From Candidatus Poribacteria bacterium (GTDB taxonomy: Bacteria; Poribacteria; WGA-4E; WGA-3G): a stretch of DNA of 64,000 bases. The notes under the pieces are model-generated. The model ran no database searches. It had not been told where the DNA came from and saw nothing but the letters and a program-made list of their open reading frames with translations. Every line of letters begins with the position of its first letter. The first letter of the stretch is position 1. Made by a program: the position numbers and the translations under genes. The stretch lies in the NCBI GenBank assembly GCA_028821605.1, contig JAPPFM010000016.1, positions 5,785 to 69,784 of the forward strand, read 5' to 3'. Below are positions 1 through 47,100 of the stretch, one piece after another.

Positions 1-591
1 GTCAAGGTATTTCCACGCGACGCGCCCATCCTGATCAATAATATAGGTTGCGGGACGTGCTACCTCAATTTCACTTGGATCAACGACATTATAGTCAGCG
101 ATCGTCTTCGTGTCTTCATCTGCCAGCAAGAGATAGGTGATTTGAAGTTTCTCTTGTACTGAACTAACAATAGCCAGGGGATCGGCACTGATGGCAATCA
201 GTTCGGCACCTTCGGCTTGAATGTCTCCATAACCGTCTTGCAACTCACCGAGTTGCGTTTGACAGGTGCCTCACGTGCCAGTGCGATAGAAGACAATAAC
301 CAACTTCTGTCCTCGGTATTCCGACAGACTACGGGATTGCCCATCGCTATCTGGAAGCGTGAATTCAGGGGCGAGTGCCCCGATATCCAATCCCTCGCCT
401 GGAGGGAGTTGTTCAGCTGCGTCTTCCGGTGCTGTTATAATGTTTGTTGTTCGCTCTGCGTTGTCACAAGCGAGACATAAGAAAACGACAGCCGCCAATA
501 GAACTGAAAAGCATATTGAACTGGTACTACGTAAAAACGGTGCGTCCCGTCCTAAGTTTATGAGATAATTGTTTGTCAATTTGACTGGCAT
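1..591 (-). CDS. Peroxiredoxin-like (AhpC/TSA/BCP family) thiol peroxidase, truncated by the window start. Candidate selenoprotein: the in-frame UGA (complement of 271-273) gives an FYRTGT-U-GTCQTQL active site, a UxxC motif.
   Basis: The minus-strand translation continues in frame from 591 through the UGA down to position 1. It reads ..LAPEFTLPDSDGQSRSLSEYRGQKLVIVFYRTGT[UGA]GTCQTQLGELQDGYGDIQAEGAELIAISADPLAIVSS..TYIIDQDGRVAWKYLD. That matches the Prx/BCP pattern FYPxDFTxVCxTE..GiS.D, with Sec three residues before the conserved Cys. An N-terminal hydrophobic anchor is present. Confidence 0.65.
240..256 (-). promoter_or_regulatory. Candidate bacterial SECIS hairpin (mRNA GCAACUC-GGU-GAGUUGC), 14 nt 3' of the UGA
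   Basis: Perfect 7-bp inverted repeat with a GGU loop directly downstream of the in-frame UGA. It has the same architecture as the three hairpins at 30234, 31902 and 40458. Confidence 0.45.
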
Positions 592-8238: not shown

Positions 8239-8384
8239 TTTGGCATAAGGTTTAGCCTCAGAAGTTTTCTACGTGAAAACCACGTTGAAGACTTTTGAGG
8301 CAACTTTAATTTGCGTCTATAGTCACGCTTGAGTATTTTCAAAGCGTGACTCCAGACAAGATTAAATTAAAAAGGAGTGAAAAT

Positions 8385-25595: not shown

Positions 25596-26294
25596 TTACT
25601 GCTTAAGCCGACTCCATGTCGTGGTTAGCAACCCATCTGGATGCACCGGCAAAGTTTTTTCCTCCGCTTTTTCGTAGTCTTCATCCGTAGGTTGATACTC
25701 TAAGTCACTGGACCAGCAAAAAACGTCGTACTGGACCTGGAGCGAACTTTGTCGTGTCCATATCATCATGACGTTTTCACCGTCTTGTAATTCGTTAATC
25801 GTCCCAGCATCCTGTCCAAAATCTCCTGTCTTCTTCCATGTCCATACGGGGACATTTTCTTCAAAAATGATATGATTGGGGCGGACGAAGGCAGGTTCCG
25901 CATCTGGAATCTTATCGCCATCGTCGCCCAAAACCCATAGCCAATCCGAATGGTTGCTTGGATTAATAACACGCCCGATAAACCGCCATTCTCCGGCTTT
26001 CCCGCCAGCACGACTGATGTCGAACCTGTAAAGTATCCAACCCTTTTTCCCAGCACCGGCGTTGGTAATGATATCCCCAAACGCACCGTCGGCAGGGTCT
26101 ACAGCCTTTTCGCCTTTACCCAATTTATAAACATCCTCGGAATCCCTCTCATCAAAGGCTTCTGCCTCAAACCAAATTTGTTCACCTTTTCCGTTTTCCG
26201 AGACTTTGAATTCTTCCACGGCAAAGCCTGTAAACGGTTGGACCAGTAGAAGACCAAGGGCTAAACTGAGCGTTAATTGAACTCTCTGAAACAT
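25596..26294 (-). CDS. Secreted hypothetical protein with C-terminal ..LLTTTWSRLKQ tail
   Basis: ATG start at 26294 (GGAG RBS) is preferred over the ORF-track start at 26417. About 60% identical to its neighbour. Confidence 0.5.
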   Translation of the reverse strand: MFQRVQLTLSLALGLLLVQPFTGFAVEEFKVSENGKGEQIWFEAEAFDERDSEDVYKLGKGEKAVDPADGAFGDIITNAGAGKKGWILYRFDISRAGGKAGEWRFIGRVINPSNHSDWLWVLGDDGDKIPDAEPAFVRPNHIIFEENVPVWTWKKTGDFGQDAGTINELQDGENVMMIWTRQSSLQVQYDVFCWSSDLEYQPTDEDYEKAEEKTLPVHPDGLLTTTWSRLKQ

Positions 26295-26653
26295 TGTGCA
26301 TTCTCCTTCATCTGAGTTTGAACTATTGTAGATTTTGCAATTATAGGACTTACGCGAAGCGCAATAAATTGCGCGACTACGAACCATACGCCCTTTGAGA
26401 AACACCTGTATTTCCAAAGTATATCTGTTTGCTACTGGTAGACAAGGATGGACGGTGAACTGCCTTACGACAAACTCGGAAGTTTCATCTATCTTAAAGC
26501 AGTTCGTGATGCACCGAGATGTCTACATATTTCGATAATTCACCATAGTTTAAACGAATTCGGTTAAAATTGTAAACTTAAAATTTGACAATCGTTTGGA
26601 AATATCGTATAATTGCAAAAATAGGTTTTCCTCTGCAATGCAGGAAACGTCCG

Positions 26654-29436: not shown

Positions 29437-31059
29437 ATGGAAACTTTGAATACCTATAAAGAATCAACAACTAACAAAATCACGCTCAATCTTGATGGCA
29501 ACGCCGAAGTGTCTGTGAAAGGCTTCATCGCTCCAATTGAGAACACCCTGTCCAATTTTCATGTCGAGTGGGATGCATTGGCACATCTACGCGTCACTGA
29601 ACCAGAAAAACGCTATCCAGTATCTGTTTTTCGAGCATTTCTTCCGAACAAGCCTGTTTCGGTAGGCGACCTTTGGCAAATTGAAGAAGCCAGCGTCCTT
29701 GAATTGCTCCAGCAACTTCATCCCGATCCGACTTTGGATATGCACATTAATTCTGGCGATTCCCGTGGATTGTGGGCATGTCTGCGCGCTTACAACGATC
29801 AGTTTGCCGAGATCGTTTTTCGGATTCATGCGGAGTTCAAGTTAGAAGGAGGTTGGTTTACACCGTCGCAGTTTGCGGGCACTCTCGTTATTGATAGGAT
29901 TGAACAGCGTGTTGTATTTTTTGAGATGTACGTCCCAGAAAGTACTGTGAATTTTGATCTCAACTGGACGAGTGCTGATGCTGGCTTCTGCTCGCAGATG
30001 GAACTCCGTGCTGGGACACAGGATATTATTCGAGAGATTGAATTCACAGAAGCCATCACCTATGAGGCAGCGAAGCACTCCTTAATACTGTGTTTCTACG
30101 AATCGGCGCGGATTAACTGGGTGCCACCGAGTCAGGTGTTAGAGACAGCACAAGCACAACAGAAACCGATTCATGCTATATCCATAGATGGACCCTTAGC
30201 AGATGAGTCGTGCTGAGGGAGTGGAAAAGGTTTGAGAGCAGTTGCTCTCTCTGATGAACAGAATATAGCGTTCTTGAACGAAAATTTCATCAACACTTGG
30301 GTATCGAATGTTGAATTAAGAAGGACACCGAGGAAGCGTGCCTTCATGACACGGCGGTTTCAAGATGAATCCAAGACATTTGACAGAAGTTATCCTTTGG
30401 CACAGGCTATCATGAAGGGGTGGAGCGAGCATTCACCCGTGGATTGTTTGATTCTCTCGCCGGAACTTGAGTTGATGGGCAGTATGCCTGTTAACGATTT
30501 CTTTGATACCGAATTGGAAGGACTTGGGGATGAGGAGGCGTATCTTTTCTTTCTTGAAGCATCGTTAACCGGGAAAAAACCCGGATTGGATGGTAGCACT
30601 TTGAAACCTCAGCCAACAACTGATTGGAATGCTTTTTTCAATTCAGGGACTGTTGTGAACAGTTTGAAAGTTGCGCTCACCCATGAGTGTCCTGAACAAG
30701 AGGTATTGAACATTTTTCGGACACCAGAATCTGGCTATCAAGATTATACCGTCACTGAGGTTGATACAACGGCATTTGAAAATGGCGGCACGCTCATTGT
30801 TGATATATCAGTAGGAGGTGCTGAACCTGCAGGGTCATTTGATTTATACAGTGGGGATAGCGAATTACCCACTGAAGGTGTGCCTCAGGACGCACTCGGC
30901 TCGGCATGGGGTGTTCCGCCTTGTAAAACGGGAATTATTAGGTATCCGTTTGAGCGAGGTGGGTTTTTTAAGTTGGGTGCTACTGGTGATTGGTTCAGTG
31001 AGAAGGGGAGTATCAACGCTTTTCTCGCTAAAGTTTCCGTGAAATCTGAAACGGAATAG
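29437..31059 (+). CDS. Candidate Cys-Sec selenoprotein, paralog 1: ORFs 29437..30216 and 30232..31059 joined by an in-frame UGA at 30214 (..DGPLADESC-U-GSGKGLRAVALSDEQ..)
   Basis: Both ORFs are in the same frame and separated by 15 nt. The downstream ORF has no ATG (only a TTG). The Cys-UGA sits where the thioredoxin-fold CxxC would be (beta-strand PIHAISIDG before, helix ..NIAFLNENFINTWV.., cis-Pro-like SPVDCLILSP after). A conserved hairpin lies 17 nt 3' of the UGA. The C-terminal domain is shared with the sensor of the 41739 sigma fusion. Confidence 0.5.
30234..30249 (+). promoter_or_regulatory. Candidate bSECIS hairpin GAGAGC-AGUU-GCUCUC
   Basis: Perfect 6-bp stem 17 nt after the UGA, conserved in all three paralogs. 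Confidence 0.4.
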
Positions 31060-31080
31060 CTGTGGATATGGAGGTAAAGA

Positions 31081-32622
31081 GTGATAAACCTTTGTAATGT
31101 ACTAAATAGTTCGACACGTCTACAGGTGCATGCACATTGGGATCCTATTGCGGATTCTACGTTTAATATGCACAAAGACTCACCAGAACTCACTGAGTTA
31201 TTTGACCTGTCTCCAAATCAGCCTGTCAAGGAATACGGGATAGATGTTTTCAATGCGTTCCTTCCACCATCAACTGTAGCGGTAGGAGATGTTTGGGAAC
31301 TTGATCCGAACAGGCTTATTTCCTTCTTTCATCAGTTTCATCCCGGTGCGACCACAGCCGTCTATCACGGGGCGGAAGGTGCGTTCGCATGTTTGCGTGC
31401 GTTTTCATCGGATTACGCTGAGGTCGCTTTCCGAATTCATGCTGATTTCACACTGGAGAGCGCTGCCTATAAGGCGTGGCAAGACGAAAACTCGTCGGAG
31501 GACGATGATAATAAATCCCGTTTTGTCCCTTCTCATTTTGTTGGACGGTTGTTAATCAATCTGAAAGAAGGGACAGTTCGAGCGTTTTCATTTTATCTTC
31601 CTCCACGCAATAGTAACGTTATCATCAGTGCCTTTGGTGGTATTGACATGGTATTTGTGCCGCGCATGGAACTCCTCACTACAGATGAAACCGATCAGGA
31701 CGAAATCGCGTGGGACGCTGCTATCACAACGGAAGAGGCACACCGCACCTTGGAACTGAAGTTCTACAAATTCGCGGAGGTTGATTGGCTCCCGATGGAT
31801 AAGGCGGTCGCACAGGCGAAAGCAACCAATCGTCCGATCCATGCAATCTCGGTCTGGGGGTGCTTAGACAATGAATCGTGCTGAGCGAACGGCAAGTATT
31901 TGAGGGCGGGTCCGCTCTCCGATCCAGAGGTTATAAGAACGCTCAACGAAAAGTTTGTCAATACGTGGGTGCTCCTCCGAGAATTGCCGGAACTGATAAG
32001 TGGTGCAAAAGGGGAGGCAGTTAGTCTCGTTGCTAAAAAAATGAAACACCACTATACGGACTCTGTAGACATCCTTGCACTGACTCCCGATGCGGAAGTT
32101 ATCATGCATCAACCGGAGATGGCACTGCCTTACAAGAATCAGGCACAAGCGTACCTATCAGTGTTACAGCATACTGTGAGTACGTTTGAAGGGAGACGTA
32201 TTCGTGTTGGACAAGGGTCAAAATTAGATGGAAATCCAATCAGTTTGGGGACGGAGTTAATGGAGGTCTTGCAGGTTTTTCGCGCTTCTGATACCGATAT
32301 GCCGAATTACACGGTCGTTGAAATTGATACGACATCGTTTGAACGCGGCGGGATACTTCACATTGAGATACAAGTCGGAACAGGTGAGGCAGCAGGGACG
32401 TTTGAGTTGTTTGATGCCGATGCCGAAATTCCTACAGAAGGTGATACAGATGAAGCACTGGAAGGTGCATGGGACGTTCCGCCCGGTGGTATAGGGCATA
32501 TCTTCCACGATTTTAGACGGGGTCGGCGTTTTAAGTTGGTCGCTACGGGTTCGGAGAATCAGGCAAACTGCACCAATGCTTTTCTGGCGCGTGTTTCTGT
32601 CGTCCCACCGTTTGAAAAATAG
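31081..32622 (+). CDS. Candidate Cys-Sec selenoprotein, paralog 2: ORFs 31081..31884 and 31900..32622 joined by an in-frame UGA at 31882 (..VWGCLDNESC-U-ANGKYLRAGPLSDPE..)
   Basis: Same architecture as paralog 1: same frame, a 15-nt gap, TTG-only downstream start, a hairpin 17 nt after the UGA. Confidence 0.5.
31902..31919 (+). promoter_or_regulatory. Candidate bSECIS hairpin GAGGGCG-GGUC-CGCUCUC
   Basis: 7-bp stem with one G-U pair and a GGUC loop, 17 nt after the UGA. Confidence 0.4.
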
Positions 32623-32794
32623 AATATATTATCTTAGCCTATCTGTCAACGTCGGACTGCATGTCCACGTTTCTATTCAACAAGCATGCGTTCGACGTTG
32701 ATTTTCAACATTCACCTCCGTTTTTATTCTCAAACCCACCAAAGTACATACCAAATTGGTAATTTTGTGTCCGATTTCTCTAATTTTTTTGAAA

Positions 32795-32837
32795 AATTCG
32801 GCAACCGTTTTGTTTGTCACCCGCGTCACTATATATC
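32795..32837 (+). promoter_or_regulatory. Shared ECF-type promoter (TTCGGCAACCGTTTTG-N9-CGCGTCACTATATAT)
   Basis: Member of the conserved promoter family, preceded by a TTTTTTGAAAAATT element. Confidence 0.5.
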
Positions 32838-32900
32838 GACACGATATTTATGTGACAAATTTTGGAAGATTTAAATGACTCCATAGGGGGAAAAGAAAAC

Positions 32901-33716
32901 ATGTTACGGGCGTTTATTGCTGCTTTTTCGAGTGTCGTTATGTTATTGTTGGTGGCTTCTGCCAACGCCGGTTTGGATGAAGACCTTGTTTTTTATTTGA
33001 CGTTTGATAATGTTAAAAATCAGACGATTATTGATGAATCTGGGAACGGTCTTGATGCAGAAATACTTGAGCATGCCGAGATTGTCAAGGGTAAATATGG
33101 AGATGCAATCCGTCTTACAGATCAAGGGGGGAATTGTGTTAATATTCCTGCTCAGGAGAAATTGAAAGTTGTAGGTGAAATAACAATGACGCTATGGGTT
33201 TATTATCAAAAACCATGGGTAGGTAGTAGAACACATTGGTTTGATAAAGACTGTCATACGGTTGGTTGGGGTGCTTCTTATGGTATTATGAGTGCTGATA
33301 TTGGTAACGGACCGGAGATCTGGCTGTTTTTGGGATCCCTGGATGAACGAAGAAATACAAATCGACAGCAACTCGTAATTCCACACAAAATGGATGGAAA
33401 AAAATGGCATCACGTTGCTGGAAGCTACGATGGGAAAACCATGAAAATCTATGTAGATGGTGAAATCATAGGGGAAGAAGAGAAAAAATTCAACTTCGTT
33501 GGTGATAATGACTCAGATTTTCGGATCGGGTGCGCAAAAGAGAGAGCACATGTTACATTCGTCAACGGTTCTATTGACGAAGCTGCAGTATGGCAACGAG
33601 CATTGAGCGATAATGAAATCAAACAAGCCATGACAGGAAACTTTCTCGCTGTTTCACTGGGTGATAAGGTCGCCACGACTTGGGCGGATATGAAAAAGAG
33701 GGCAATAGCCCGTTAG
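32901..33716 (+). CDS. Secreted LamG/concanavalin-like protein with C-terminal ..VATTWADMKKRAIAR tail
   Basis: ATG at 32901 after GGGGGA. Signal peptide, LamG_3-like motifs (..DESGNGLDAEI.., ..KIYVDGE..). Confidence 0.6.
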   Translation: MLRAFIAAFSSVVMLLLVASANAGLDEDLVFYLTFDNVKNQTIIDESGNGLDAEILEHAEIVKGKYGDAIRLTDQGGNCVNIPAQEKLKVVGEITMTLWVYYQKPWVGSRTHWFDKDCHTVGWGASYGIMSADIGNGPEIWLFLGSLDERRNTNRQQLVIPHKMDGKKWHHVAGSYDGKTMKIYVDGEIIGEEEKKFNFVGDNDSDFRIGCAKERAHVTFVNGSIDEAAVWQRALSDNEIKQAMTGNFLAVSLGDKVATTWADMKKRAIAR

Positions 33717-33825
33717 CGAATTTCTGAAACGTGAGAATGCTATTACCTTATTAATGCTTCAGAATCCTTTAAGTGATAATGAAGGGGCATATTTAAGCAT
33801 ATTATTTTACGTATGTGCACCTATG

Positions 33826-33871
33826 CAGAATTAAGCAACCGTTTTGTCTGTCACCCGCGTCACTATATATT
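33826..33871 (+). promoter_or_regulatory. Shared ECF-type promoter plus start of the conserved leader
   Basis: TTAAGCAACCGTTTTGTCTGTCACCCGCGTCACTATATAT. Confidence 0.5.
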
Positions 33872-34135
33872 GAAGGTCAGAATCTACGCGAACAGAACTC
33901 TTTGTAGAGGGGTATTTATGTAGCGTATTTCCTATAATTTACTAAAGTTTGGACAATGTCGGTCAGGTTCATGCTCGGTTTTCAAGGGGCTCTGATTTTT
34001 CTGAAAGTTCCTGACACAAACGCAACTCACAAAAAATAAACTCGGATGCACCCAGTAGCAGCCCCAGCGGGGCGAAAGGTGTATAGAATTAAAAATTGTC
34101 CAAAGCTTAGTCCAGATAGATAAGGAGAATAAACC

Positions 34136-34642
34136 ATGAAATGCTTCGCAATAATAGTCCTAAGTATGGCAGTATTAATTATTGGAAATGCTCAGGATGC
34201 TCGATATGATGTTGGTATTAGTGTATTTAGCGATGAAAACGAGGTGGGTGAGAAGGTAAAGGCTCTCCTCACAGAGGAACTCCAGAAGATCGGAGACATT
34301 AATGTGGTGGATCCGACATGGAGCACCTACAAGTTGTCTGTGATTGCCATTGAGACTAAAACTAAAGACAGGCAGGAAAAAACTGGCGATATTGCAGTAG
34401 TGTGCAGTATTCTAATAGCATACGATAATAGTCGTGTTGTCAGTCTGATTCCAGAGGACATGCCAGAACTACGGAAAAAGGTCTACGAAGAAACGAAGCA
34501 TCTCTATCAAGAACCTGTAATGGGATTGTATAGTGATGATACGGCTAAAATAAGAACGATATGCAGAAACATCGTAGAACAATTCAATATGAATGTCCTT
34601 AACGAACAGCGGAGAGAAAAAGGAAATCTCTTCTTTCACTAG
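34136..34642 (+). CDS. Secreted hypothetical protein
   Basis: Signal peptide, no recognisable domain. Sits downstream of a shared promoter and the conserved leader. Confidence 0.45.
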   Translation: MKCFAIIVLSMAVLIIGNAQDARYDVGISVFSDENEVGEKVKALLTEELQKIGDINVVDPTWSTYKLSVIAIETKTKDRQEKTGDIAVVCSILIAYDNSRVVSLIPEDMPELRKKVYEETKHLYQEPVMGLYSDDTAKIRTICRNIVEQFNMNVLNEQRREKGNLFFH

Positions 34643-34720
34643 GAAAAGAGAGTTGTGAATCCTCGCGAGTTCAAAACTACAAATTTCAGTCCAAACCTGC
34701 TGATTGCATTTCTTTTTCCA

Positions 34721-34769
34721 GAATTAGGTAACTAACCGTTTTGTCCGTGTACCCGCGTCACTATATAAG
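34721..34769 (+). promoter_or_regulatory. Shared ECF-type promoter, variant with 4-nt insertion (GGTAACTAACCGTTTTG...CGCGTCACTATATAA)
   Basis: Directly precedes the RBS of 34779. Confidence 0.45.
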
Positions 34770-34778
34770 GAGAAAACT

Positions 34779-35588
34779 ATGCAGATAGTCCACACGCTTA
34801 TGTTGGGTATCATTGTCACCGGTTTATTGTCCATTGCCGATGCAGAGGCTGATAGTATAAAAACGCAACTTGAAGTATCCGCGCGACACAGCGAATCGGT
34901 GAAAGTTACGACCTCCGATGAGCGTATCGTCAATGCGTTTATCGTTTATCCAGCGGTGAAAGAACCCGCAACGGCTATCATCGTCATCCACCAGGGTCGC
35001 GGACTCACCAACTGGGTCCGGCTCGTCGCAGACACACTCGCTGCCGAAGGGTTTGTCGCAATTTGTCCAGATCTGCTTTCCGGCATGGGGCCCGACGGTG
35101 GCGGCACAGAAAGTTTCCACTCAAGGGACGACGTACCATGGGCTATCAGTGAACTCCCACCCTCCCAAGTCACATCCGACCTGGATGCCATCCAAAAATA
35201 TGTCCGTAATCTGCCTTCAACCAACGAAAAAGTAGCAGTTTCCGGATTCTGCTGGGGAGGCGGTCAAACGTTCAGGTACGCTGTCCATTCCGACACAATA
35301 GCGGCTAGCTTTGTGTTTTACGGTCCTGCCCCATCAACGGAAGATATCCCCAAAATATCAGCACCCGTGTATGGCTTCTACGCCGAGAACGACAATCGTA
35401 TCAATGCCACAATTGATGCCACTAAAGCCGCGGCGGATGCCGCAAACATCACCTACGAGCCCGTCATCTATGAAGGGGTCGGTCACGCCTTCCTGATGCG
35501 CGGTATGACAGAAGATGCCGACGAAGCACAGAAAACTGCCACCAAAGCCGTATGGGAACGGTGGGTATCCCTCCTAAGAGGGCTCTAA
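34779..35588 (+). CDS. Secreted dienelactone hydrolase family protein
   Basis: Signal peptide, ..AIIVIHQGRGL.., nucleophile elbow GFCWGG, C-terminal ..GVGHAF... Confidence 0.8.
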   Translation: MQIVHTLMLGIIVTGLLSIADAEADSIKTQLEVSARHSESVKVTTSDERIVNAFIVYPAVKEPATAIIVIHQGRGLTNWVRLVADTLAAEGFVAICPDLLSGMGPDGGGTESFHSRDDVPWAISELPPSQVTSDLDAIQKYVRNLPSTNEKVAVSGFCWGGGQTFRYAVHSDTIAASFVFYGPAPSTEDIPKISAPVYGFYAENDNRINATIDATKAAADAANITYEPVIYEGVGHAFLMRGMTEDADEAQKTATKAVWERWVSLLRGL

Positions 35589-35651
35589 AGGAATACGCGT
35601 GAATAATTTTGTGTATTTTCTCGGATTTGTGTCCGATTTCCTCGATTTTTT

Positions 35652-35698
35652 GAAAAATTAGGCAACCGTTTTGTCTGTTACCCGCGTCACTATATATT
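35652..35698 (+). promoter_or_regulatory. Shared ECF-type promoter
   Basis: TTAGGCAACCGTTTTGTCTGTTACCCGCGTCACTATATAT after a TTTTTTGAAAAATTAGG element. Confidence 0.5.
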
Positions 35699-35817
35699 AA
35701 GGTCAGAATCTACGCGAACAGAACTCTCTGTAGAGAGGATGTTTCTGTAGCGTATTTCCTATAATTCAGTATAGGGAAAATAAAAGATCAAAATTTATCC
35801 ATAGTTGGGAGCATCCT

Positions 35818-36843
35818 ATGACGCGCAAGTCTGTTTCTCTTTATTCAATGGATCGGGGTTATACCAAGTTTACGATATTATGTTATGCTGTCAGCGTGTT
35901 ATTTGTGTTCAGTAGCAGTGCTTCTGTGTGGGCAAAAATTCCGGAAACAGCAAAAATAGCGTTTACGTCAACCAGAGATGGAAGGACCGAAATCTATCTC
36001 ATGAACCCTGATGGCACCGTGCCGGTGAATGTAAGCCAGCATGCAGGAGCAGAGGATTACAATCCTGTCTGGTCGCCAGACGGAAAGCAAATTCTGTTCA
36101 TCTCAGATCGGGAAAAACTCTTTGATTTGTATCTTATGGATGCAGATGGCACAAATGTCCGGAAGGTATTTAAAACCGAGGCACTCAGAAGAGATCCGGC
36201 GTGGTCTCCTGATGGCAAACGAATTACCTACGCACAAGGAGAAGAACCCAACCAAGAAATCTATATTGCTGCAATAGATGGTACATTCGTTGAAAAACTG
36301 ACAGACGGGTTCATGCCAAATTGGTCGCCCGATGGGAACGAGATAGCCTTTGTGGTGGGAGGTATCAAACACACTCCACTGGGTATCTTCGACTTACAGA
36401 CAAGTACCCAAAGGATACTCCTCTCAAAGGAGGTACCGTGGATAGTTAATCCAAACTGGTCACCACGCGGAGACAAAATCGCCTTTTCAAAAATAGACGG
36501 ACGCTTCGATCCAAATGGTTTTCTTTGGTGGGAGAGGTCAAACATTTACGTTGCAAATCGTGATGGAACAGGACTTCATCAGATTACCAAGGATGAAGAA
36601 TCAATTTGTCAGAGTCCCACTTGGTCTCCACACGGCAGCGAACTCATTTACACGGATGTAGTCAGACAACCGGGGAAAAACATTTCTGTGCAATTGTTCA
36701 GAACAGATTTGAGTGGTGCTAACCCAACACAATTGACGCATAAAGGAAATAATTCTCGCGCGGATTGGTTTGACCCAACGTTAAGCGTTTCACCTTCGGT
36801 GCAATTGTTAAGGACGATATGGGGAAAAATCAAAGTGGATTAA
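35818..36843 (+). CDS. TolB-like PD40 beta-propeller protein, paralog 1, C-terminal ..VQLLRTIWGKIKVD tail
   Basis: Signal peptide, repeated ..SPDGKxIxF.SDR..DLYLMDADG.. PD40 units. Confidence 0.7.
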   Translation: MTRKSVSLYSMDRGYTKFTILCYAVSVLFVFSSSASVWAKIPETAKIAFTSTRDGRTEIYLMNPDGTVPVNVSQHAGAEDYNPVWSPDGKQILFISDREKLFDLYLMDADGTNVRKVFKTEALRRDPAWSPDGKRITYAQGEEPNQEIYIAAIDGTFVEKLTDGFMPNWSPDGNEIAFVVGGIKHTPLGIFDLQTSTQRILLSKEVPWIVNPNWSPRGDKIAFSKIDGRFDPNGFLWWERSNIYVANRDGTGLHQITKDEESICQSPTWSPHGSELIYTDVVRQPGKNISVQLFRTDLSGANPTQLTHKGNNSRADWFDPTLSVSPSVQLLRTIWGKIKVD

Positions 36844-36989
36844 GTTAACCGTGAACTGTAAGGAGCATTAAATAAACATGAAAAGGAAGGGTTGATTTTC
36901 TCAATGTTAACAATATGGGTCTTGGGGTTAAGCTTAACGCTTCAAAGCGCTGCTGATAAGATAAACATCGAAAACATATCTAATTTTTT

Positions 36990-37036
36990 GAAAAATTAGG
37001 CAACCGTTTTGTCTGTTACTCGCGTCACTATATATC
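36990..37036 (+). promoter_or_regulatory. Shared ECF-type promoter
   Basis: Identical core, part of a tandemly duplicated unit. Confidence 0.5.
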
Positions 37037-37155
37037 AAAATAGCATCTACACGAACAAACCTCTTTGTAGAGAGAATGTTTATGTGGCGTATTTCCTATA
37101 ATTCAGTATAAGATAAAATCGAAGATCAAAATCTATTCATAATGGAGAATGTCTT

Positions 37156-38202
37156 ATGCAGTGCAAAGCTGTTTTTCCTTGTTCAGGAGATCAAGGCTAT
37201 GTCAAGTTAGCAATGTTAAGTTATACGATTAGTGTTCTACTTGTGTTCAGTGGCAGTGCTATCGTATGGGCGGAAGGCCCAGCGACAGCGAAAATCGCGT
37301 TCATGTCAAAGCGGGACGGCAATCCTGAAATCTATATAATGAACTCTGACGGGAGTGACCAAGTCAATTTGACCCAGCATCCCGCAGCCGATTATCATCC
37401 AGCCTGGTCGCCAAACGGAAAACACATACTTTTCAGTTCTGATCGAGATGGAATCTTCGATTTGTATCTTATGGATGCCGATGGGACAAATGTGCGAAAG
37501 GTGTTTGCAAGCAGCAAATATAGATGGGAGCCTGCTTGGTCGCCCGACGGTAAACGGATTGCCTATGCACAGGGAGACCCAGGAAAAGCAAAACTACAAT
37601 TTGGGATGCGATTTGTTCCTTACGCTGACCTCACGCTCTGCGTCGCGACCCTAAATGGAGGCTCCGTTGAGAAATTGACAGATGGATTCATGCCAAGTTG
37701 GTCTCCTGATGGGCGCGAGATAGCTTTTGTGGTGGGTGGACGCGAAAGCACACCATTGGGTATTTTTGATCTACAGAGGCGCACCCGAAAGATACTCCTT
37801 TTAAAAGAGATGCCGTGGATATTTGATCCGAAGTGGTCTCCACAAGGTGACAAAATCACTTTTGCGAAACTCGAGGGAGCAGAGTTTGATGGACAGGGTT
37901 TTCTTGTGTCTAGGAAGGGGACGATCTATACTGTGGATAGCAATGGCAAAGGACTTCATCAGATTACCGATGAACATTCCTCCTATAACCCCACTTGGTC
38001 TCCAGATGGCAACGAACTCATTTACAACGCTCGGGCGGGCGTTTTTTCACAACTCTTCAAAATGGATCTGGACGGCGGTAATCCAACGCAACTGACACAC
38101 GACGGCAGTAATTCGAGTCCAGATTGGTTTGACCCAACATTAAGCGTTTCACCTTCGGTACAATTATCAACGACGATGTGGGGAGAAATCAAAGCGGATT
38201 AA
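37156..38202 (+). CDS. TolB-like PD40 beta-propeller protein, paralog 2, C-terminal ..VQLSTTMWGEIKAD tail
   Basis: Same architecture as 35818. Confidence 0.7.
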   Translation: MQCKAVFPCSGDQGYVKLAMLSYTISVLLVFSGSAIVWAEGPATAKIAFMSKRDGNPEIYIMNSDGSDQVNLTQHPAADYHPAWSPNGKHILFSSDRDGIFDLYLMDADGTNVRKVFASSKYRWEPAWSPDGKRIAYAQGDPGKAKLQFGMRFVPYADLTLCVATLNGGSVEKLTDGFMPSWSPDGREIAFVVGGRESTPLGIFDLQRRTRKILLLKEMPWIFDPKWSPQGDKITFAKLEGAEFDGQGFLVSRKGTIYTVDSNGKGLHQITDEHSSYNPTWSPDGNELIYNARAGVFSQLFKMDLDGGNPTQLTHDGSNSSPDWFDPTLSVSPSVQLSTTMWGEIKAD

Positions 38203-38349
38203 GTTAACCGTGAACTGTAAGGAGCATTAAATAAACATGAAAAGGAATTGGTTGATTTTCTCAATGTTAGCAATATGGGTCTTGGGGTTAAGCTTAACGC
38301 TTCAAAGTGCTGCTGATAAGATAAACATTGAAAACACATCTAATTTTTT

Positions 38350-38396
38350 GAAAAATTAGGCAACCGTTTTGTCAGTCACCCGCGTCACTATATATC
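38350..38396 (+). promoter_or_regulatory. Shared ECF-type promoter
   Basis: Identical core, tandemly duplicated unit. Confidence 0.5.
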
Positions 38397-38515
38397 AAAA
38401 TAGCATCTACACGAACAAACCCCTTTGTAGAGAGAATGTTTACGTAGTGCATTTCTTATAATTCAGTGTAAGATAAAATCGAAGATCAAAACCTATTCAT
38501 AATGGAGAATGTCTT

Positions 38516-39583
38516 ATGAAGCGCAAAGTTGTTTTTCCTTGTTCAAGAGATAAAGGTTATGTTAAGTTTGCAGTGTTAAGTTATATGATCAGTGCTCTAC
38601 TTGTGTTCAGTAGCAGTACTTCTGTGTGGGCAAAAGCCCCGGCGACAGCGAAAATTGTGTTTATGTCAAAGCGAGATGGCAACGCCGAAATCTATATCAT
38701 GAATCCTGATGGGAGTGAGCAGGTGAATTTGAGCCAGCACCCTGCAGCAGATTATGATCCGGCTTGGTCACCGAACGGAAAACATATCCTATTCAGTTCT
38801 GATCGAGACGGTGGCGTTTTCGATTTATACCTTATGGATGCAGACGGCAGAAATGTCCAGAAGGTGTTTGAAAACAGCGCATATAGAAGAAATCCAAATT
38901 GGTCGCCTGATGGTAAACAGATTGTCTATGCGCAGGGAGATCCACAAAAGGCAAAACTACACTTTGGATTACGACTCATCCCACTAGCCGATCTCACGCT
39001 TTATGTTGCAACACTAAAAGGGGACTCTGTTGAGAAATTAACGGATGGGTTTATGCCGAGTTGGGTGATTGATGGCAGCGAAATAGCCTTTGTGGTGGGT
39101 GGCATCGAACATACGCCGCTGGGTATTTTCGACTTGCAGACGCATATCCAAAAGATGCTTCTCTTGAAGGAGATGCCTTGGATAATTCATCCGAGCTGGT
39201 CCCCACAGGGGGACAAAATCGCCTTCACGGAAATCAATAGGGCAGGGTTTGATGGGCAAGAATTTCTTTCGTTTGAGGACTCAGCACTCTACATAACGAA
39301 TAACGATGGAATAGGACTTCATCAGATAACTAAAGATGAAGAAGACTTCCCTTCTGAGCCCACTTGGTCTCCACACGGCGATGAACTCATTTACACAGCT
39401 TTAGTCTTGGAACCGGGTAAAGGTGGGGCACAACTTTTCAAAACGGACCTGAACGGTGGTAATCCAACGCAACTGACACACGACGGTAGTAACTCGAGTC
39501 CGGATTGGTTTGACCCAACATTAAGCGTTTCACCTTCGGTACAATTATCAACGATGATGTGGGGAGAAATCAAAGCAGATTAA
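38516..39583 (+). CDS. TolB-like PD40 beta-propeller protein, paralog 3, C-terminal ..VQLSTMMWGEIKAD tail
   Basis: Same architecture. Immediately followed by selenoprotein paralog 3, probably in one operon. Confidence 0.7.
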   Translation: MKRKVVFPCSRDKGYVKFAVLSYMISALLVFSSSTSVWAKAPATAKIVFMSKRDGNAEIYIMNPDGSEQVNLSQHPAADYDPAWSPNGKHILFSSDRDGGVFDLYLMDADGRNVQKVFENSAYRRNPNWSPDGKQIVYAQGDPQKAKLHFGLRLIPLADLTLYVATLKGDSVEKLTDGFMPSWVIDGSEIAFVVGGIEHTPLGIFDLQTHIQKMLLLKEMPWIIHPSWSPQGDKIAFTEINRAGFDGQEFLSFEDSALYITNNDGIGLHQITKDEEDFPSEPTWSPHGDELIYTALVLEPGKGGAQLFKTDLNGGNPTQLTHDGSNSSPDWFDPTLSVSPSVQLSTMMWGEIKAD

Positions 39584-39606
39584 GATAACTATAAGGAGAT
39601 TTAAAA

Positions 39607-41610
39607 ATGAAAATCTTAACAATGGGACTGCTCATTCTGGTAGTGATGGGTGGACAACTGAGTGCTGATGACCACTCGGCAACTAACAACAAAATTACAC
39701 TGAGTCTTGATGGGGCATCAAAAGTGTTAGTAAAAGGCTTCATCGCCCCAATTGAATATACACAATACAACTTCCATGTGGATTGGGACGAATTGGCGAA
39801 CCTACGGGTTGCTGCGCCAGAGAAAAGGTATCCAACGTCGATTTTCCGTGCTTTTCTGCCCTCCGAAGCGGTTTCTGTCGGCGACCTCTGGCAGATTGAG
39901 GAAGAGGGCACGCTGGAATTACTGAGGCAACTGAACCCCAACCCGAGGCTGGACCTGGACATCAATGCGGGAGATTCCCGCGGACTATGGGCATGTCTGC
40001 GCGCCTACAATGATGAATTTGCTGAGATTGTATTCCGCATCCATGCAGAATTTGTCTTAAACGACGGGCGATTCACTCCCTCTCAGTTTACAGGATATCT
40101 TGTTATTGATCGAATTAGAGAGGAGATTGCCGCCTTCAAGATGTATGTTCCTGAAGGTATACTGAATTTTGATGTCGGACGAAACAGCACCCGAGCTATA
40201 GATGTCGGTTTTTGTCCGCAAATAGAACTCCGTACGGGGAAGCAAAATGTTGTGCGAGAGAGTAAGTTCACAGAAGCCATCACGCACCTGGAAGCGGAAC
40301 GCTCTCTAATACGACGTTTCTACAAATCGCAGCAGATCGAATGGGTATCTTTAGAGGAGGCATTGGAGATGGCACCAGCACAAGGGAAGCCGGTTCACGT
40401 TATCTCCATAGATGGACCTCTTGCGGATGAGTCGTGCTGAGGGAGCGGAAAGACTTTGAGGGCAGGTGTCCTCTCCGACGACCGAATTATAAAGTACTTG
40501 AACGAAAATTTTATCAACACTTGGGTCCCCAATTCTGAATTAGGTCGCGTCCCAAGTTTGCGGGAACCGATTACCAAGAGACGCGAACGCGAATCCAAGA
40601 CGTTTGACACAACGCATGCTTTGGCACAAGCTATTATGGAGAGTTGGAAGAAAGGTTCCCCTGTAGATTGTTTTGTTATATCACCAACATTTGAATTAAT
40701 GGGGAGGCAACCTGTCAATGAACTTCTTTTTGATGGTGGAAACACACCGCGACATTACTTGACGTTTCTCCAGGAGTCTTTGGCAGGAAAGCTCCCTGGG
40801 TTTGGTGAGGATACCTCGCAACCTCCACCAGTACCTGATTCGGAGGCTTTTTCTGAATTAGATGCTGCTATGTCAAAGGATTTGAAAGTTATACTCACGA
40901 GTGAAAGACCTAAGCGGGAAGTTCTCAACATTTTTCGGACACCAAAATCAGGATACCAAGATTATACTGTCATTGAAATTGACGCTACAGCGTTTAAGGG
41001 CGAGGGGTTACTTACTATTGACATCTTGGTAGGGAGTGCTGACCCCGAGGGGTCGTTCGACCTTTATGATGGTGACACTGAACTCCCTACACGGGGTACG
41101 CCTCATAGCGCGCTCGCCTCTGCATGGGGTGTTCTCCCCGGTAAAAAGGGAACAATCAAGTATCGTTTTGACCGGGGGAAAGTTTTTAAGTTGGGCGGTA
41201 CTGGCAGTTGGTTCAGTGAGGAAGGGAGTATCAACGCTTTTTTGGCGAAAATCTCTGTTGAATCGGATCAGGAACCGGAGCCAAGAAAAGAGGCATCGGC
41301 GCGCTCAGAGCAATCTGCGGAAGATGTAATGAACGCTTTCGTGGAAGCATTCAAGAATCTTGACGCAGAAGTAATACTTTCGATGCTTACAGAGGATGCC
41401 AAAGAAACATTTGGAGATAATTTTCAGGATGTGCCAGAGGATGTGCGTACGCAGATGCGTCAAATGTTGCGTCAGATGGAGGTTTTGAGCAGCGAATATG
41501 TGGGTAATGAATTCCATTTTCGATTAAGAGTGCCGATGGCACAGCCGCCCGAGAAATCTGTTAAAATGCGAAAAGTGGAAGGTATCTGGCGCATTTATGA
41601 TATTGAGTGA
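39607..41610 (+). CDS. Candidate Cys-Sec selenoprotein, paralog 3: ORFs 39607..40440 and 40456..41610 joined by an in-frame UGA at 40438 (..DGPLADESC-U-GSGKTLRAGVLSDDR..). Has N-terminal signal peptide and extra C-terminal extension.
   Basis: Same frame, 15-nt gap, TTG-only downstream start, a hairpin 17 nt after the UGA. N-terminal MKILTMGLLILVVMGGQLSA signal peptide. Confidence 0.5.
40458..40473 (+). promoter_or_regulatory. Candidate bSECIS hairpin GAGGGC-AGGU-GUCCUC
   Basis: 6-bp stem with one G-U pair and an AGGU loop, 17 nt after the UGA. Confidence 0.4.
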
Positions 41611-41738: not shown

Positions 41739-43067
41739 ATGAAGAACGACGATGTTGAACTGATTCAAGACAGTCTCATAGGCGATGAAAACGCGTTTGC
41801 TACTTTGGTAAGAAAATACCAAAAGCATGTCCACGCGCTTGCGTGGCGGAAGATTGGCGATTTCCATGTTGCTGAAGAGGTCACACAGGATACCTTTTTG
41901 CAAGTCTATAAGAAACTGGCAACACTAAAGGATCCGCATCGTTTTGCTGGGTGGCTTTATAGAATTGCTGCGCGTCAATGCCACGCGTGGTTGAGAAAGA
42001 AGCGGATGCAGACGCAATCGCTGGAAGACACAGACCCCGAACTGATAGAAAGGATGACGTATTCTCAATATATCGCCGAGGAGCAGGAGAGAGCTGCGAC
42101 TGACGCGCAGCGCGACATCGTCCAAAGATTGCTTGCCCGGCTGCGGGAGAGTGAACGCACCGTCGTCACACTCCACTACTTCGGGGAAATGACGGTTGAA
42201 GAGATTAGTCGGTTTTTAGGTGTGTCGGCGAGTACCATTAAAAGTCGGCTCCGTCGCGCGCGACACCGCTTAAAGAAATCGGAACCCATGATCCGAGAGG
42301 CACTGGAAGGTTTCCAAATTAGGGCGAATCTCACCGAAAATATCATGCAAGAGATTTCCCGTATGAATCCTACACCGCCTTCCTTTAGCAAACCATTTAT
42401 ACCGTGGGCGATTGCGGCTTCAACGCTTGTCCTCGTTGTGATGGCATTTGGAGCCAGCAATCAGTACCTAACACGTTTCCAACAGCCTTACAATTTTGAT
42501 GCGCCATCGGAGATGACGATAGAACTCATTGACACACCTATTGTTTTGGATCTCGCGTCGAAACCGGATGTGCGGACACAACTCGGGAAGTCTACGGAAA
42601 CCCCCAGTAAAGGCAGTGAACTTGCCCCGAACACAGATCAACCGGAATATGTGCCGAGGTTTCTCTCAGCACAGGCAAAGAAGGTTGTCCTCAACGATCA
42701 AGAACCTTCGCAGCAGGTCTTGAGCATTTTGCGAACACCGGCGGCAGGTACGCAAGATTACACTGTCGTTGAAATCGATGCGACAGCGTTTAAAGATGGT
42801 GGTGTACTCACGATTGATCTCTGGATTGGGAGCGCAGAGGCTGCTGGTGCGTTTATTCTGTTCGCGAGCGACAGCGAATTTTCCACGGACGGTATGCCTG
42901 AAGTTGTACTCACCTCGGCATCAGGGATCATCCCCGGTAAAGCGGGGAGAATCACGCACCGTTTTGACGAAGGCGAGCACTTTAAATTAGGTGCTACCGG
43001 TAATTCGTTCAGTGGAGAAGAAAAGGTCAATTCTTTTCTCGCAAAAATCTCTGTAGACGCTGAATAA
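41739..43067 (+). CDS. ECF sigma factor fused via a single TM helix to an extracytoplasmic domain homologous to the C-terminus of the adjacent selenoprotein candidates
   Basis: Sigma70 region 2 (..HALAWRKIGDFHVAEEVTQDTFLQVY..) and region 4 (..ISRFLGVSASTIKSRLRRARHRL..). TM helix (WAIAASTLVLVVMAFG). Conserved juxtamembrane RFQQPYNFDAPSEMTIELIDTPIVLDL. C-terminal ..ILRTPAAGTQDYTVVEIDATAFKDGG..FKLGATG..FLAKISV domain. Confidence 0.75.
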   Translation: MKNDDVELIQDSLIGDENAFATLVRKYQKHVHALAWRKIGDFHVAEEVTQDTFLQVYKKLATLKDPHRFAGWLYRIAARQCHAWLRKKRMQTQSLEDTDPELIERMTYSQYIAEEQERAATDAQRDIVQRLLARLRESERTVVTLHYFGEMTVEEISRFLGVSASTIKSRLRRARHRLKKSEPMIREALEGFQIRANLTENIMQEISRMNPTPPSFSKPFIPWAIAASTLVLVVMAFGASNQYLTRFQQPYNFDAPSEMTIELIDTPIVLDLASKPDVRTQLGKSTETPSKGSELAPNTDQPEYVPRFLSAQAKKVVLNDQEPSQQVLSILRTPAAGTQDYTVVEIDATAFKDGGVLTIDLWIGSAEAAGAFILFASDSEFSTDGMPEVVLTSASGIIPGKAGRITHRFDEGEHFKLGATGNSFSGEEKVNSFLAKISVDAE

Positions 43068-44112: not shown

Positions 44113-47100
44113 ATGAAAAACAGTGATGTTGAACTCATTCAGCAGATTCTTGATGGTGATGATAATGCTTTCAGTGAACTTGTGAAAAAATATGAAAAGC
44201 CGGTTCACGCACTTGTGTGGCGGAAACTTGGTGATTTCCATACCGCTGAGGAGATTACCCAAGATACGTTCCTGAAAGCGTACCAGAGACTTGCGACATT
44301 GAAGAAACCGCAGCGTTTTGCGGGCTGGCTTTATGTCATAGCCGCAAATAACTGTAGTACATGGCTGCGGAAAAAGCGTTTGCGGATGCAGTCATTAGAG
44401 GAAACAAGTGTCTCACAGTTAGAAAAAGCGACATATTCCGGATATGTTGTTGAGGAAAACGAGCGGACAGCGGCGGAAGTGCAGCGTGAAGTCGTGAAAA
44501 ACTTGCTTGCGAAACTCCAAGAGAGTGAACGCACGGTGATGACCCTGCATTATTTCAGCGAAATGTCGGCTGCAGAAATCGGTGAATTTTTAGGTGTATC
44601 CGTAAATACTATTAAGAGTCGTCTTCAGCGTGCCAGGCAGCGTTTAAGGAAAGAGGAACCACTCATAAGAGAGGCGTTAGAAAATTTCAAAATCACACCG
44701 CATCTAACGGAGAACATCATGCGAGAGGTTTCACGTATGAAGCCTACTGCACCGTCTGGTGGTAAGCCGTTAATGCCGTGGGCACTTTCTGCAGCAACAG
44801 CCATTGTTATTTTTCTCATAATGGGAGTAGGATCTCAATACCTTGCCCGCTTTCAAAGACCCTACAATGTGGATGCACAATCGGAAACCACCATTGAAAT
44901 TATTGACGCGCCCATCGTCCTTGACACACAGGCAAAACCTGATTTACGGAACCAAGCGGGGCGGTTCGATACCATTGGCAAGAATGTCGGTGCTGGTGCG
45001 CAACTTTCGGAACCTGTTGCACTTGGTGCAGCGCAGGTAGAAAAAGAAGTACGACCGTCAACGAAACAGCAGTGGATACAAGCAAGCGGACCGGAAGGCG
45101 GTGCGATATCGGGTTTGCTGGCAAGTTCCAGCGGAGATGTCTATGCTGCCTCCTCCATTGGTATCTATAGGTTGAGTCCAGATGCTCAGGCGTGGACGCT
45201 TGTCAACACTACCGTTCCGACGACCGATCCATCAAATTCTGAACCCTCTGGTCTGATACCGATGGCAGAGCGAGGTGATGTCCTCTATCTTGTTTCCACT
45301 GATAAGGTATTTGCCTCGACCGATAGAGGCGAAACATGGAAGTCATTTGGTGTGCGTCCAAAGGGATCTGCTGTCGGTTTAGTGGTAACGGATAAAGCAT
45401 TGTATCTTGGGCTTCGAGAGAAAGGGGTTTTCAGGTACACGGATACTGATAAGCAGTGGACTTCTCTAACTGATGGGGCATTGGATGGAAAAGTGTTCGC
45501 ACTGACTGCGCTTGGAGATACAGTATTTGTTGGCACGAACCGAGGTCTCTATCGCCTAAGCTCAGGCGTGTGGGAAAAGTTATCGGTAGAGACTACCAAA
45601 TCCGTTCAGTCCTTGGCGGTTTCTGGAAACAATCTCTATATAGGTACAGGGCTGGATTTTTATGAATTCAATGAAGAGATTGATCCCGTGGCAATAGGAC
45701 AGTTGATGGGACAAATGTTCATGAACAATAAAGGGGCATACGAGATTTTCCACTCAACTGATTTGGGAGATTCGTGGACTGAGATAACGCCCACAAACAG
45801 ATCTATTACCAGAATAATATCACTGGGTATCAGAGTCGTGGCTGTCGGTGATACTCTCTTGGCACTTGGGGTGGGTGGATTTCGTTCAACCGACCGTGGA
45901 CAAACGTGGACAGAATTTGCCCTCAATGAGAATTCACTGACTTTGAGTATATTTCCAGCTGTGAGCGTAAACGAAAATACTTTTTTCAAGGCGGGACCCC
46001 TCGGTGCTACACGTTCAATTGATGGTGGCGCGTCATGGCATCGCTTTATGGCAAATATGGTGGGGACCAGAATACTGGATTTAGTGGAATTTAAAAATGG
46101 TCTCTACGCCAATACCGGCAGAACTGTTGTCAAATCGGTTGACGGTGGGGAGTCTTGGAAACGTGTTTTTGTTGATTTTAGTGTCTCTGCACTTGAACCG
46201 ATAGAGAAGAAAAACCGCACAAGTCAAATCCATTTCCCAAAGTTAGCGGTTGCCGATGGTGTGTTTTACATTGTTACACCGGAAAAAAGCAAACTGCGCG
46301 TTTTTCATAAATCTGTTGACGGCAACACACTAACCTCAATTGCAGGCATGCCCGTTTTGGGAAAAGATGTTTCCAGAAATGTACAAGAGGCAGAGCAGGA
46401 CGAAGCGTATGAAAAAGTTATGGCAGATGACACCGCTAATACCATCGAAAAAGCAGGTAAGGTAACTGGTATTTTCAGTAATCTCCTTGAAGCACTACAA
46501 GAGGAACAGGAAGAACGGGAATTGGTCGAGGCTGGTGGATTTGCGGTCAGTGGAGATACATTTTACCTGGAATATAAACGAGGGCTTTTCAAATGGGAAC
46601 CGGGCGAACCAGAATGGGTGCATACGGGGTTAATAGATGCCAGTGAACAGAATGATGACGAACTTGACAGAGGATTCCAATTAGCGGTTTCCGGGGAGAC
46701 GATCTACGTAGGAAAACGCGACGGTCATCTTTTTCGATCACTCGATGGTGGTGACACATGGAGAGACTTAACTCCAAATTTACCGCTCCGTTTTACACGT
46801 TTCAACGAGATAGTCTTCACGAATTCAACGGTGTATGTCGCCACGGACGCAGGTGTTTTGGCATCGCAAACTGGAGAAGATTGGCGCGCGATAACCGATA
46901 AGGTGGGGACGCACATCGTCATAGATCGCTTGGCTATGGCAGACACGGAGGTTTATGGTGCTGGCGATCCTGGTGTTTACCGGTTGAACAGTCGAAACAG
47001 GTGGGAAAAAATCTCGCCGGAAGTTCCAGATGGTGTTGTTGCTCTTGTTATCAATGGTAAGAGACTTTATGTAGCTACCGAACAGCGCGGGATGTTTCAC

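Follow-up and report, generated by a model that had tools for sequence, protein, structure and literature searches.

A 64,000-nucleotide stretch of a Candidatus Poribacteria bacterium genome (assembly GCA_028821605.1, contig JAPPFM010000016.1, positions 5,785 to 69,784 of the forward strand; hereafter, the window) carries three paralogous loci, each of which is divided into two open reading frames (ORFs) by a TGA codon. We conclude, from sequence comparison, that the three loci are very probably single genes decoded through UGA as selenocysteine (Sec) and that their products belong to the selenoprotein N (SelN, SELENON) family. An earlier note on this DNA had proposed a candidate new selenoprotein family of an architecture not seen before. 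That part of the proposal does not hold, because the homology and the S-C-U-G motif are shared with SelN; the note had rediscovered the SelN motif. What appears to be new is a bacterial branch of the SelN family, with its domain architecture and its gene context.

In its description of the three loci, the earlier note was accurate. The ORF pairs 29437..30216/30232..31059, 31081..31884/31900..32622, and 39607..40440/40456..41610 each lie in one frame broken by one TGA, a Cys (..ESC) directly precedes the TGA, and the next TTG follows 15 nt past it. The codons between the TGA and the TTG are conserved (GSGKGL, ANGKYL, and GSGKTL, then RAxxLSD), and hairpins of the sequences first reported begin 17 nt after the TGA in all three genes (Table 1). 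Past its single TGA, each frame continues with conserved residues: GSGKGLRAVALSD in paralog 1, ANGKYLRAGPLSD in paralog 2, and GSGKTLRAGVLSD in paralog 3. Paralog 1 has a Shine-Dalgarno sequence and an ATG start, paralog 2 has GGAGG and a GTG start, and the additional C-terminal tail of paralog 3 gives a weak, below-threshold match to SnoaL_2. A scan for TGA codons flanked by long open frames returned, as plausible in-frame-TGA genes in the window, only these three and a peroxiredoxin (Prx)-like gene. In another genome, a relative (P0016) has two tandem modules joined as one ORF that carries two UGAs.

Table 1. Positions of the genes, codons, hairpins, and domains discussed in the text, numbered from the first nucleotide of the window; Sec codons and hairpins are predictions
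Feature	Position	Strand	Details
SelenoN-like selenoprotein gene (predicted), paralog 1	29437..31059	+	540 codons including one UGA; stop TAG
Paralog 1, SelN-type N-domain (approximate)	29437-30080		
Paralog 1, thioredoxin-like CU domain (approximate)	30081-30640		
Paralog 1, C-terminal beta-sandwich (approximate)	30650-31056		
Sec codon UGA, paralog 1	30214..30216	+	motif D-E-S-C-U-G-S-G-K
SECIS-like hairpin, paralog 1	30234..30249	+	GAGAGC-AGUU-GCUCUC, -9.5 kcal/mol
SelenoN-like selenoprotein gene (predicted), paralog 2	31081..32622	+	divergent subtype, WGCLDNESC-U-ANGK
Sec codon UGA, paralog 2	31882..31884	+	
SECIS-like hairpin, paralog 2	31902..31919	+	GAGGGCG-GGUC-CGCUCUC, 7 bp, 3' arm shifted 2 nt, -10.7 kcal/mol
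SelenoN-like selenoprotein gene (predicted), paralog 3	39607..41610	+	N-terminal signal peptide, extra C-terminal tail
Sec codon UGA, paralog 3	40438..40440	+	
SECIS-like hairpin, paralog 3	40458..40473	+	GAGGGC-AGGU-GUCCUC, the family consensus, -8.9 kcal/mol
Extracytoplasmic function (ECF) sigma factor fused via a transmembrane segment to the selenoproteins' C-terminal beta-sandwich	41739..43067	+	directly downstream of paralog 3
Prx-like thiol:disulfide oxidoreductase selenoprotein gene (predicted)	1..591	-	UGA 273-271; hairpin 255-241; gene runs off window end
Six paralogous ECF sigma factors	41739-43067, 44113-47139, 49330-52113, 52516-56340, 58375-61425, about 63479 onward	+	
C-terminal-tag proteins	2372-3115, 17444-18223, 24861-25553, 25596-26417	-	
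C-terminal-tag proteins	7558-8238, 8346-9053, 32862-33716, 35818-39583	+	

The assignment to SelN comes from three comparisons with animal proteins. A profile of the family (A4) matched EDO40205.1 of Nematostella vectensis with an E value of 3e-41 over profile positions 55-407; this protein is annotated as 'EF-hand domain-containing protein', and its homologs are named selenoprotein N across vertebrates. BLASTP aligned paralog 2 with Pan paniscus SelN (8e-43, 29% over 345 residues) and paralog 3 with sea-urchin SelN (1e-31, about 350 residues), the motif being included in both alignments. Hence, eukaryotic SelN is homologous in the N-domain and in the thioredoxin-like Cys-Sec (CU) domain, and an architecture that the earlier note did not know from any family has a known counterpart in these two domains. 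The motif regions are nearly superimposable when a SelN transcript (L083) is set beside paralog 2, WGCLDNESC-U-ANGKYLRAGPLSDPEVIRTLNEKFVNTW. In the literature, SelN is recognised by its EF-hand together with an S-C-U-G motif that is 'reminiscent of thioredoxin reductases' (PMC8584023, PMC12839072). The window genes read ESC-U-G, ESC-U-A, and ESC-U-G (paralogs 1, 2, and 3), and the Sec lies in a thioredoxin-like (UAS-type) fold, as in the SELENON family. No SelN-like family is present in a 2026 catalogue of 119 prokaryotic selenoprotein families (PMC13188914) or in BSepDB (PMC13326102), and neither NCBIfam (June 2026) nor Pfam has a model for a bacterial SelN family. A full-text search of the literature for selenoprotein N in bacteria, in Poribacteria, or in connection with transfer returned nothing relevant, and an earlier report elsewhere is possible; a Poribacteria homolog may already have served in structural studies.

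To place the UGA within the fold, we modelled a natural unsplit homolog (P0001) that has Gly at the site and is 53% identical to paralog 1 over 97% of its length. The AlphaFold model (predicted local distance difference test score, pLDDT, 76.5) consists of a beta-rich N-domain, a thioredoxin-like domain, and a C-terminal beta-sandwich. Its thioredoxin-like domain has beta1 at 294-299, C307-G308, and alpha1 at 310-317, and in this model the fold is unbroken across the UGA site. The suggestion that the UGA sits at the CxxC position of a thioredoxin fold is therefore upheld in that the CU pair falls between beta1 and alpha1; its exact register is ambiguous by one residue. Neither the joined proteins nor the family profile scored above threshold against Pfam, NCBIfam, or PDB sequences. 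Membership of Thioredox_DsbH/DUF255 (PF03190) was considered and rejected: the scores (15.7 and 11.8 bits) fall short of the cut-off of 27, the motif is C-U-G-S-G and not CxxC, and the resemblance to PF03190 is structural only. More generally, the family differs from the periplasmic DsbD-gamma/DsbH/Thioredoxin_7/DUF255 group in having C-U-G-S-G, with Gly at the position of the second Cys, where the group has C-x-x-C. Sequence similarity to this group is not significant, and the family adds N- and C-terminal domains.

Homology and structure prediction show a product of three parts: a beta-rich N-domain of the SelN type, a domain with a thioredoxin fold in which the Cys-Sec pair lies, and a C-terminal beta-sandwich that animal SelN does not have. 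A reversible selenenylsulfide would link the adjacent Cys and Sec, the chemistry proposed both for thioredoxin reductase (GCUG) and for animal SelN (SCUG). Given the position of the pair in the fold and the animal SelN literature, the CU protein may reduce oxidised cysteines of client proteins, and the copies with a signal peptide would do so in the cell envelope. An improbable alternative is that the proteins are not oxidoreductases and that the Cys-Sec pair chelates a soft metal or metalloid (Hg, Cu, As), with the neighbouring ECF sigma factor responding to the metal. Binding of heavy-metal atoms has been argued for the CU dipeptides of several bacterial selenoprotein families (Haft and Gwadz, bioRxiv 10.1101/2022.07.06.499078). 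In the present family, however, the pair occupies the catalytic position of a DsbD-gamma/DsbH-type thioredoxin fold, and the literature presents animal SelN as a redox enzyme whose targets are cysteines of SERCA2 (PMC8584023, PMC12839072). Moreover, a match to CorA reflects generic beta-sandwich similarity, and metal-resistance genes were not found nearby.

We then asked how the UGA is read. The family was represented by 192 junctions from the window and 79 loci, covering about 60 Candidatus Poribacteria genomes; codon choice was compared among 181 unique genes and the downstream hairpin among 160 unique junction sequences. First, synonymous sites around the UGA are frozen. The Cys codon before UGA is TGC in 181/181 genes (background 49%), Ser at +2 is AGY in 160/160, Arg at codon +7 is AGR in 181/181 (background 25%), Val at +10 is GTC in 135/144, and Leu at +11 is CTC in 176/181 (background 22%). 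Codons just outside the hairpin element are free (Glu: GAG 108, GAA 73; Asp: GAC 57, GAT 57). Second, the six stem pairs are 91-100% paired across the family, and two of them show compensatory changes (GC 123, AU 14, GU 11 in one; GU 115, GC 29, AU 15 in the other). Third, the loops fall into few types (AGGU 104, AGUU 48, GGGU(C) 8), and the real sequences fold at -13.4 kcal/mol versus -9.4 kcal/mol for synonymous recodings, the real sequence being better in 91% of cases. Finally, the published model of the bacterial selenocysteine insertion sequence (bSECIS; PMC13188914) sets four constraints, and 143 of the 160 unique junctions conform to every one of them; on its criteria the window hairpins score -9.5, -10.7, and -8.9 kcal/mol.

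The element spans the codons L-R-A-G/V-V-L-S and presents a tetraloop containing G[G/U] 23 nt after the UGA. Cys-Cys homologs have the same L-R-A-G-P-L-S peptide, but its Arg is encoded by CGT and its Leu by different codons, and the signature is absent. No Rfam family matched in the window at the gathering threshold. These patterns suggest that the hairpin behaves as a bacterial SECIS, one that would recruit SelB with Sec-tRNA(Sec) from within the coding sequence so that the UGA after Cys is read as Sec. We also noted that UGAGGG occurs twice (30214-30252 and its equivalents): one copy is in frame and contains the Sec codon, and the other is out of frame and serves as the hairpin's 5' arm (cUGAGGGc). 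The 3' arm, GUCCUCUC, can pair with either copy, and in RNAfold a long-range pairing that sequesters the UGA is often favoured; the alternative pairings may constitute a structural switch.

Independently of the family, the Prx-like gene reads ..FYRTGT-U-GTCQTQ.. (T-U-G-T-C) and matches peroxiredoxin/ResA-type models; it belongs to a known family. Its hairpin, CAACUC-GGU-GAGUUG, lies 15 nt after the UGA (7 bp, GGU loop, -9.2 kcal/mol), in agreement with the earlier description of a UxxC gene with a GGU-loop hairpin in the same stretch, and we take the gene as an independent sign of Sec decoding in this genome. The Poribacteria genome WGA-3G was reported to have SelA (2), SelB (1), and SelD (1) (Slaby et al. 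2017, Table S4, PMC5649159), and a locus from that genome (L059) carries two family genes with TGA. Sec-type hydrogenases have also been reported from Poribacteria (PMC13582414).

Natural variants bear on the same question. An exhaustive profile search gave 869 matches at E <= 1e-3. Among them were unsplit homologs reading DESC-C-G[ST]GK (P0130, P0134, P0147, P0148, and P0178); a follow-up search added a further clade of 13 such clusters, and P0388-P0399 also have this motif. Their second Cys is genuine, with codons TGC TGT or TGC TGC, so that homologs with Cys in place of Sec in a continuous ORF, which the earlier note had named as a check on its reading, do exist. One Poribacteria orthologous group mixes TGA forms with Gly (GGC), Thr, or Trp (TGG) forms. 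The possibility that the Gly and Trp homologs are TGA codons read by genetic code 25 or 4 was rejected, as the DNA has real GGC and TGG. In the Trp variant (L003 97-1677) the hairpin is lost. In both Sec-loss variants for which the DNA was read (P0001, Gly; P0014, Trp), the preceding Cys codon has switched to TGT. The context UGC UGA GG is common to the bacterial genes and both eukaryotic SelN transcripts (L081 and L083), and the invariant TGC before UGA (30211-30222, 31879-31890, 40435-40446, and L004-L079) suggests a context requirement for recoding. In two further protein variants (P0012 and P0015) the neighbouring Cys is gone as well; this joint variation of Cys and Sec fits the two residues working as a pair.

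Taken together, junctions at which TGA is the only stop codon, frozen synonymous sites, a covarying stem, the bSECIS fit, the Cys-Cys homologs, and SelA, SelB, and SelD in WGA-3G bear out the proposal that UGA is read as Sec, and the UGAs of the three window genes are almost certainly decoded in this way. We give little credence to a recoding to something else, whether SECIS/SelB-dependent insertion of Cys by a tRNA(ReC)-type tRNA or hairpin-stimulated near-cognate read-through as Trp, Cys, or Gly. A tRNA(ReC) that reads UGA as Cys with a SECIS has been described in some bacteria (cited in PMC13582414), Cys, Gly, or Trp occupies the site in the natural variants, and a eukaryotic hairpin at the same position stimulates read-through (PMC3541580). 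Against this, the hairpin matches the SelB-type bSECIS model down to its G[G/U] loop, this very residue is Sec in the homologous eukaryotic proteins (PMC8584023), and the Sec genes occur in a Poribacteria genome that carries the family. For a Cys product, UGC would suffice without costly machinery, a solution that the Cys-Cys forms display.

The junction codon itself shows that the split is conserved at TGA far beyond chance: it is TGA in 189/192 junctions, GGC in 2, and TGG in 1, and never TAA or TAG, and all 189 family genes with TGA have the [SA]-C-U-[GA] motif. A protein search found 295 relatives, nearly all of them database halves, either N-halves with the terminus ..DE[SA]C or C-halves that begin with MRA..LSD, which NCBI names 'hypothetical protein'; the exact ..[DE][SA]C terminus is present in 77/148 top database representatives. 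A scan of one genome per species gave 368 relatives, of which the best 76 loci are all Candidatus Poribacteria; complete Poribacteria chromosomes with family genes include OZ242029.1, OY282374.1, and OX639992.1. The supposed second-ORF start is TTG in 94, CTG in 80, ATG in 6, and CTA in 1 of the 181 genes, which argues that it is a Leu/Met codon inside a gene and not a start. Elsewhere in this genome TGA acts as a normal stop: among window ORFs of 200 aa or longer, the stop is TAA 16, TGA 15, and TAG 9 times. A genome-wide reassignment of UGA was rejected, as TGA terminates many ordinary ORFs. We dismiss, as having next to no likelihood, a gene fission in which UGA is a true stop, the N-half has Cys as its last residue, and the C-half is begun at TTG through translational coupling. 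The genes are indeed split in this way by gene callers and in public databases, into hundreds of N-halves ending ..ESC and C-halves starting MRA.., and the genome does use TGA as a stop, but the stop in question is only ever TGA, the 'start' is often CTG and has no Shine-Dalgarno sequence, the five intervening codons are conserved as protein across the family, the break lies within one thioredoxin fold between beta1 and alpha1, and unsplit Cys, Gly, and Trp homologs, like eukaryotic SelN, run continuously through the site.

Having placed the three proteins in the SelN family, we compared the bacterial and eukaryotic branches. Homology extends over about 350 residues (N-domain and thioredoxin/UAS-like domain) and includes the motif D-[DE]-[QS]-S-C-U-G-S-G-[RK]-x-L-R....L-N-E-x-F-[IV]-x-T-W. 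The bacterial proteins differ in having no EF-hand in Pfam scans and no type II/endoplasmic reticulum membrane anchor; their N-terminus carries a cleavable-type signal peptide (paralog 3) or none (paralogs 1 and 2). EF-hand and anchor are animal features outside the shared core. They add one to three C-terminal beta-sandwich domains, their genes stand in tandem arrays tied to an ECF sigma factor, and their Sec insertion must use a hairpin in the coding region, not a SECIS in the 3' untranslated region (3'UTR). A crude neighbour-joining tree groups the eukaryotic proteins in a single clade that falls outside those of Poribacteria, and the bacterial diversity is deep. Bacterial subtypes are 36% identical to each other and 29-30% identical to eukaryotes. 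A recent host-to-symbiont transfer of animal SelN was considered and appears unlikely, as the bacterial subtypes are as distant from one another as from eukaryotes and the eukaryotic clade is separate in that crude tree.

Animal SELENON mRNA has its own hairpin beside the UGA, the selenocysteine redefinition element (SRE); it assists the insertion of Sec, and disease mutations fall within it (PMC8584023, PMC3541580, PMC12839072). In L081 (1434-1500) and L083 (1517-1585), UGC UGA GGU UCx is followed by a 14 bp stem from 6 nt after the UGA, with the loop at +24 to +34. The bacterial hairpin has its loop at +27 to +30 and a stem of 6-7 bp, versus 14 bp in the SRE. Both elements have their midpoint about 28 nt past the UGA, at the same codons of genes that are homologous. 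One reading, which we put forward as speculative and rather unlikely, is that SelN is an old bacterial family of ECF-sigma-coupled envelope redox proteins that eukaryotes inherited or acquired, and that the SRE is a remnant of the bacterial SECIS. On this reading, the SRE would have been kept as a recoding enhancer once the 3'UTR SECIS took over.

The proposed connection to ECF sigma factors comes from gene context. In 37/80 sources, a gene for a sigma-beta-sandwich fusion lies immediately downstream of family genes. As the earlier note had recognised, the C-terminal domain is common to the family and to a neighbouring sigma/anti-sigma-like protein; the same beta-sandwich recurs in the product of 41739-43067. 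SelN relatives are greatly multiplied in sponge-associated Poribacteria, where tandem arrays reach up to seven copies in 13 kb. Outside Poribacteria, one Cys-Cys form (P0134) is a fusion of sigma factor, transmembrane segment, and SelN-like protein, and another (P0130) is preceded by a sigma gene. Because the arrays adjoin a sigma factor with the same beta-sandwich and Cys-Cys forms are fused or adjacent to ECF sigma factors elsewhere, we propose, tentatively and short of an even chance, that CU activity is coupled to the neighbouring ECF sigma factor. The signal passed on might be the redox state or the client load of the SelN-like proteins.

Several observations weigh against these interpretations. 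Paralogs 1 and 2 have no signal peptide, versus paralog 3 and most orthologs, which have one, and this does not fit a purely periplasmic role. Taken singly, the hairpins are no stabler than dinucleotide shuffles (z -0.2 to +0.2), so the support for them is conservation and not thermodynamics. Either C or U could correspond to the first Cys of CxxC, a one-residue ambiguity, and hhalign of the thioredoxin-like domain against E. coli DsbD-gamma was not significant. A tRNA-Sec was not found in the window or in 60 loci, which is uninformative for whole genomes, and neither the 64 kb window nor the roughly 1 Mb of other loci contained sel genes. The Gly, Thr, and Trp orthologs imply that the selenol is dispensable for the role of those copies. 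In at least one Gly variant (GGC; L001 6001-7674) the stem is still perfect, with the loop now AACU, so that constraints on the protein could maintain some of the stem. The ECF sigma link, lastly, is a hypothesis from synteny and fusions only.

Adjacent Cys and Sec residues are known from other proteins. Thioredoxin reductase likewise has them in x-C-U-G, with a presumed selenenylsulfide between the neighbours; the analogy that the earlier note drew with its GCUG terminus is one already made for the S-C-U-G motif of SelN (PMC8584023, PMC12839072). The two are not homologous, and the thioredoxin reductase motif lies on a flexible C-terminal tail of a flavoenzyme, whereas the family motif is internal, at the CxxC position. 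The CU-motif selenoproteins SaoL, SaoB, SaoC, HgcA, MbdU, KCU-star, and CopZ-like form 2 share the Cys-Sec dipeptide and a bacterial SECIS, but their folds and contexts are unrelated and none matches in NCBIfam. Table 1 of PMC13188914 lists these CU-motif families and contains none that resembles SelN.

SELENON is a human disease gene (SELENON-related myopathy) and is treated as a eukaryotic selenoprotein in the literature searched, in which no solved SELENON structure was found. For structural studies and enzymology, the bacterial branch supplies soluble and diverse homologs, some of which are natural variants with Cys-Cys, Gly, or Trp. The ECF sigma fusions and synteny hint at the kind of process that the SelN fold serves, and the branch allows a concrete test of whether the SRE of animal SELENON descended from a bacterial SECIS. 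If SelN is indeed an ancient bacterial family, the Poribacteria proteins would be the first prokaryotic model for a human myopathy gene with poorly defined substrates. The family is missing from current prokaryotic selenoprotein catalogues, and its genes are systematically mis-annotated in Poribacteria genomes as pairs of hypothetical proteins.

Two further features of the window were noted. In each of the six sigma paralogs, a transmembrane segment connects the sigma factor with a large domain outside the cytoplasm (SelN-type beta-sandwich, WD40 repeats, or BNR/propeller-like), and only the first has an outer domain in common with the selenoproteins. Many predicted secreted proteins (LamG-like, DUF-like, and TolB-like propellers) end in a C-terminal tag, ..[TV]TW[GAS]x[LM]K.. 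or ..WG[KE]IK[AV]D, which looks like a lineage-specific sorting or anchoring signal.

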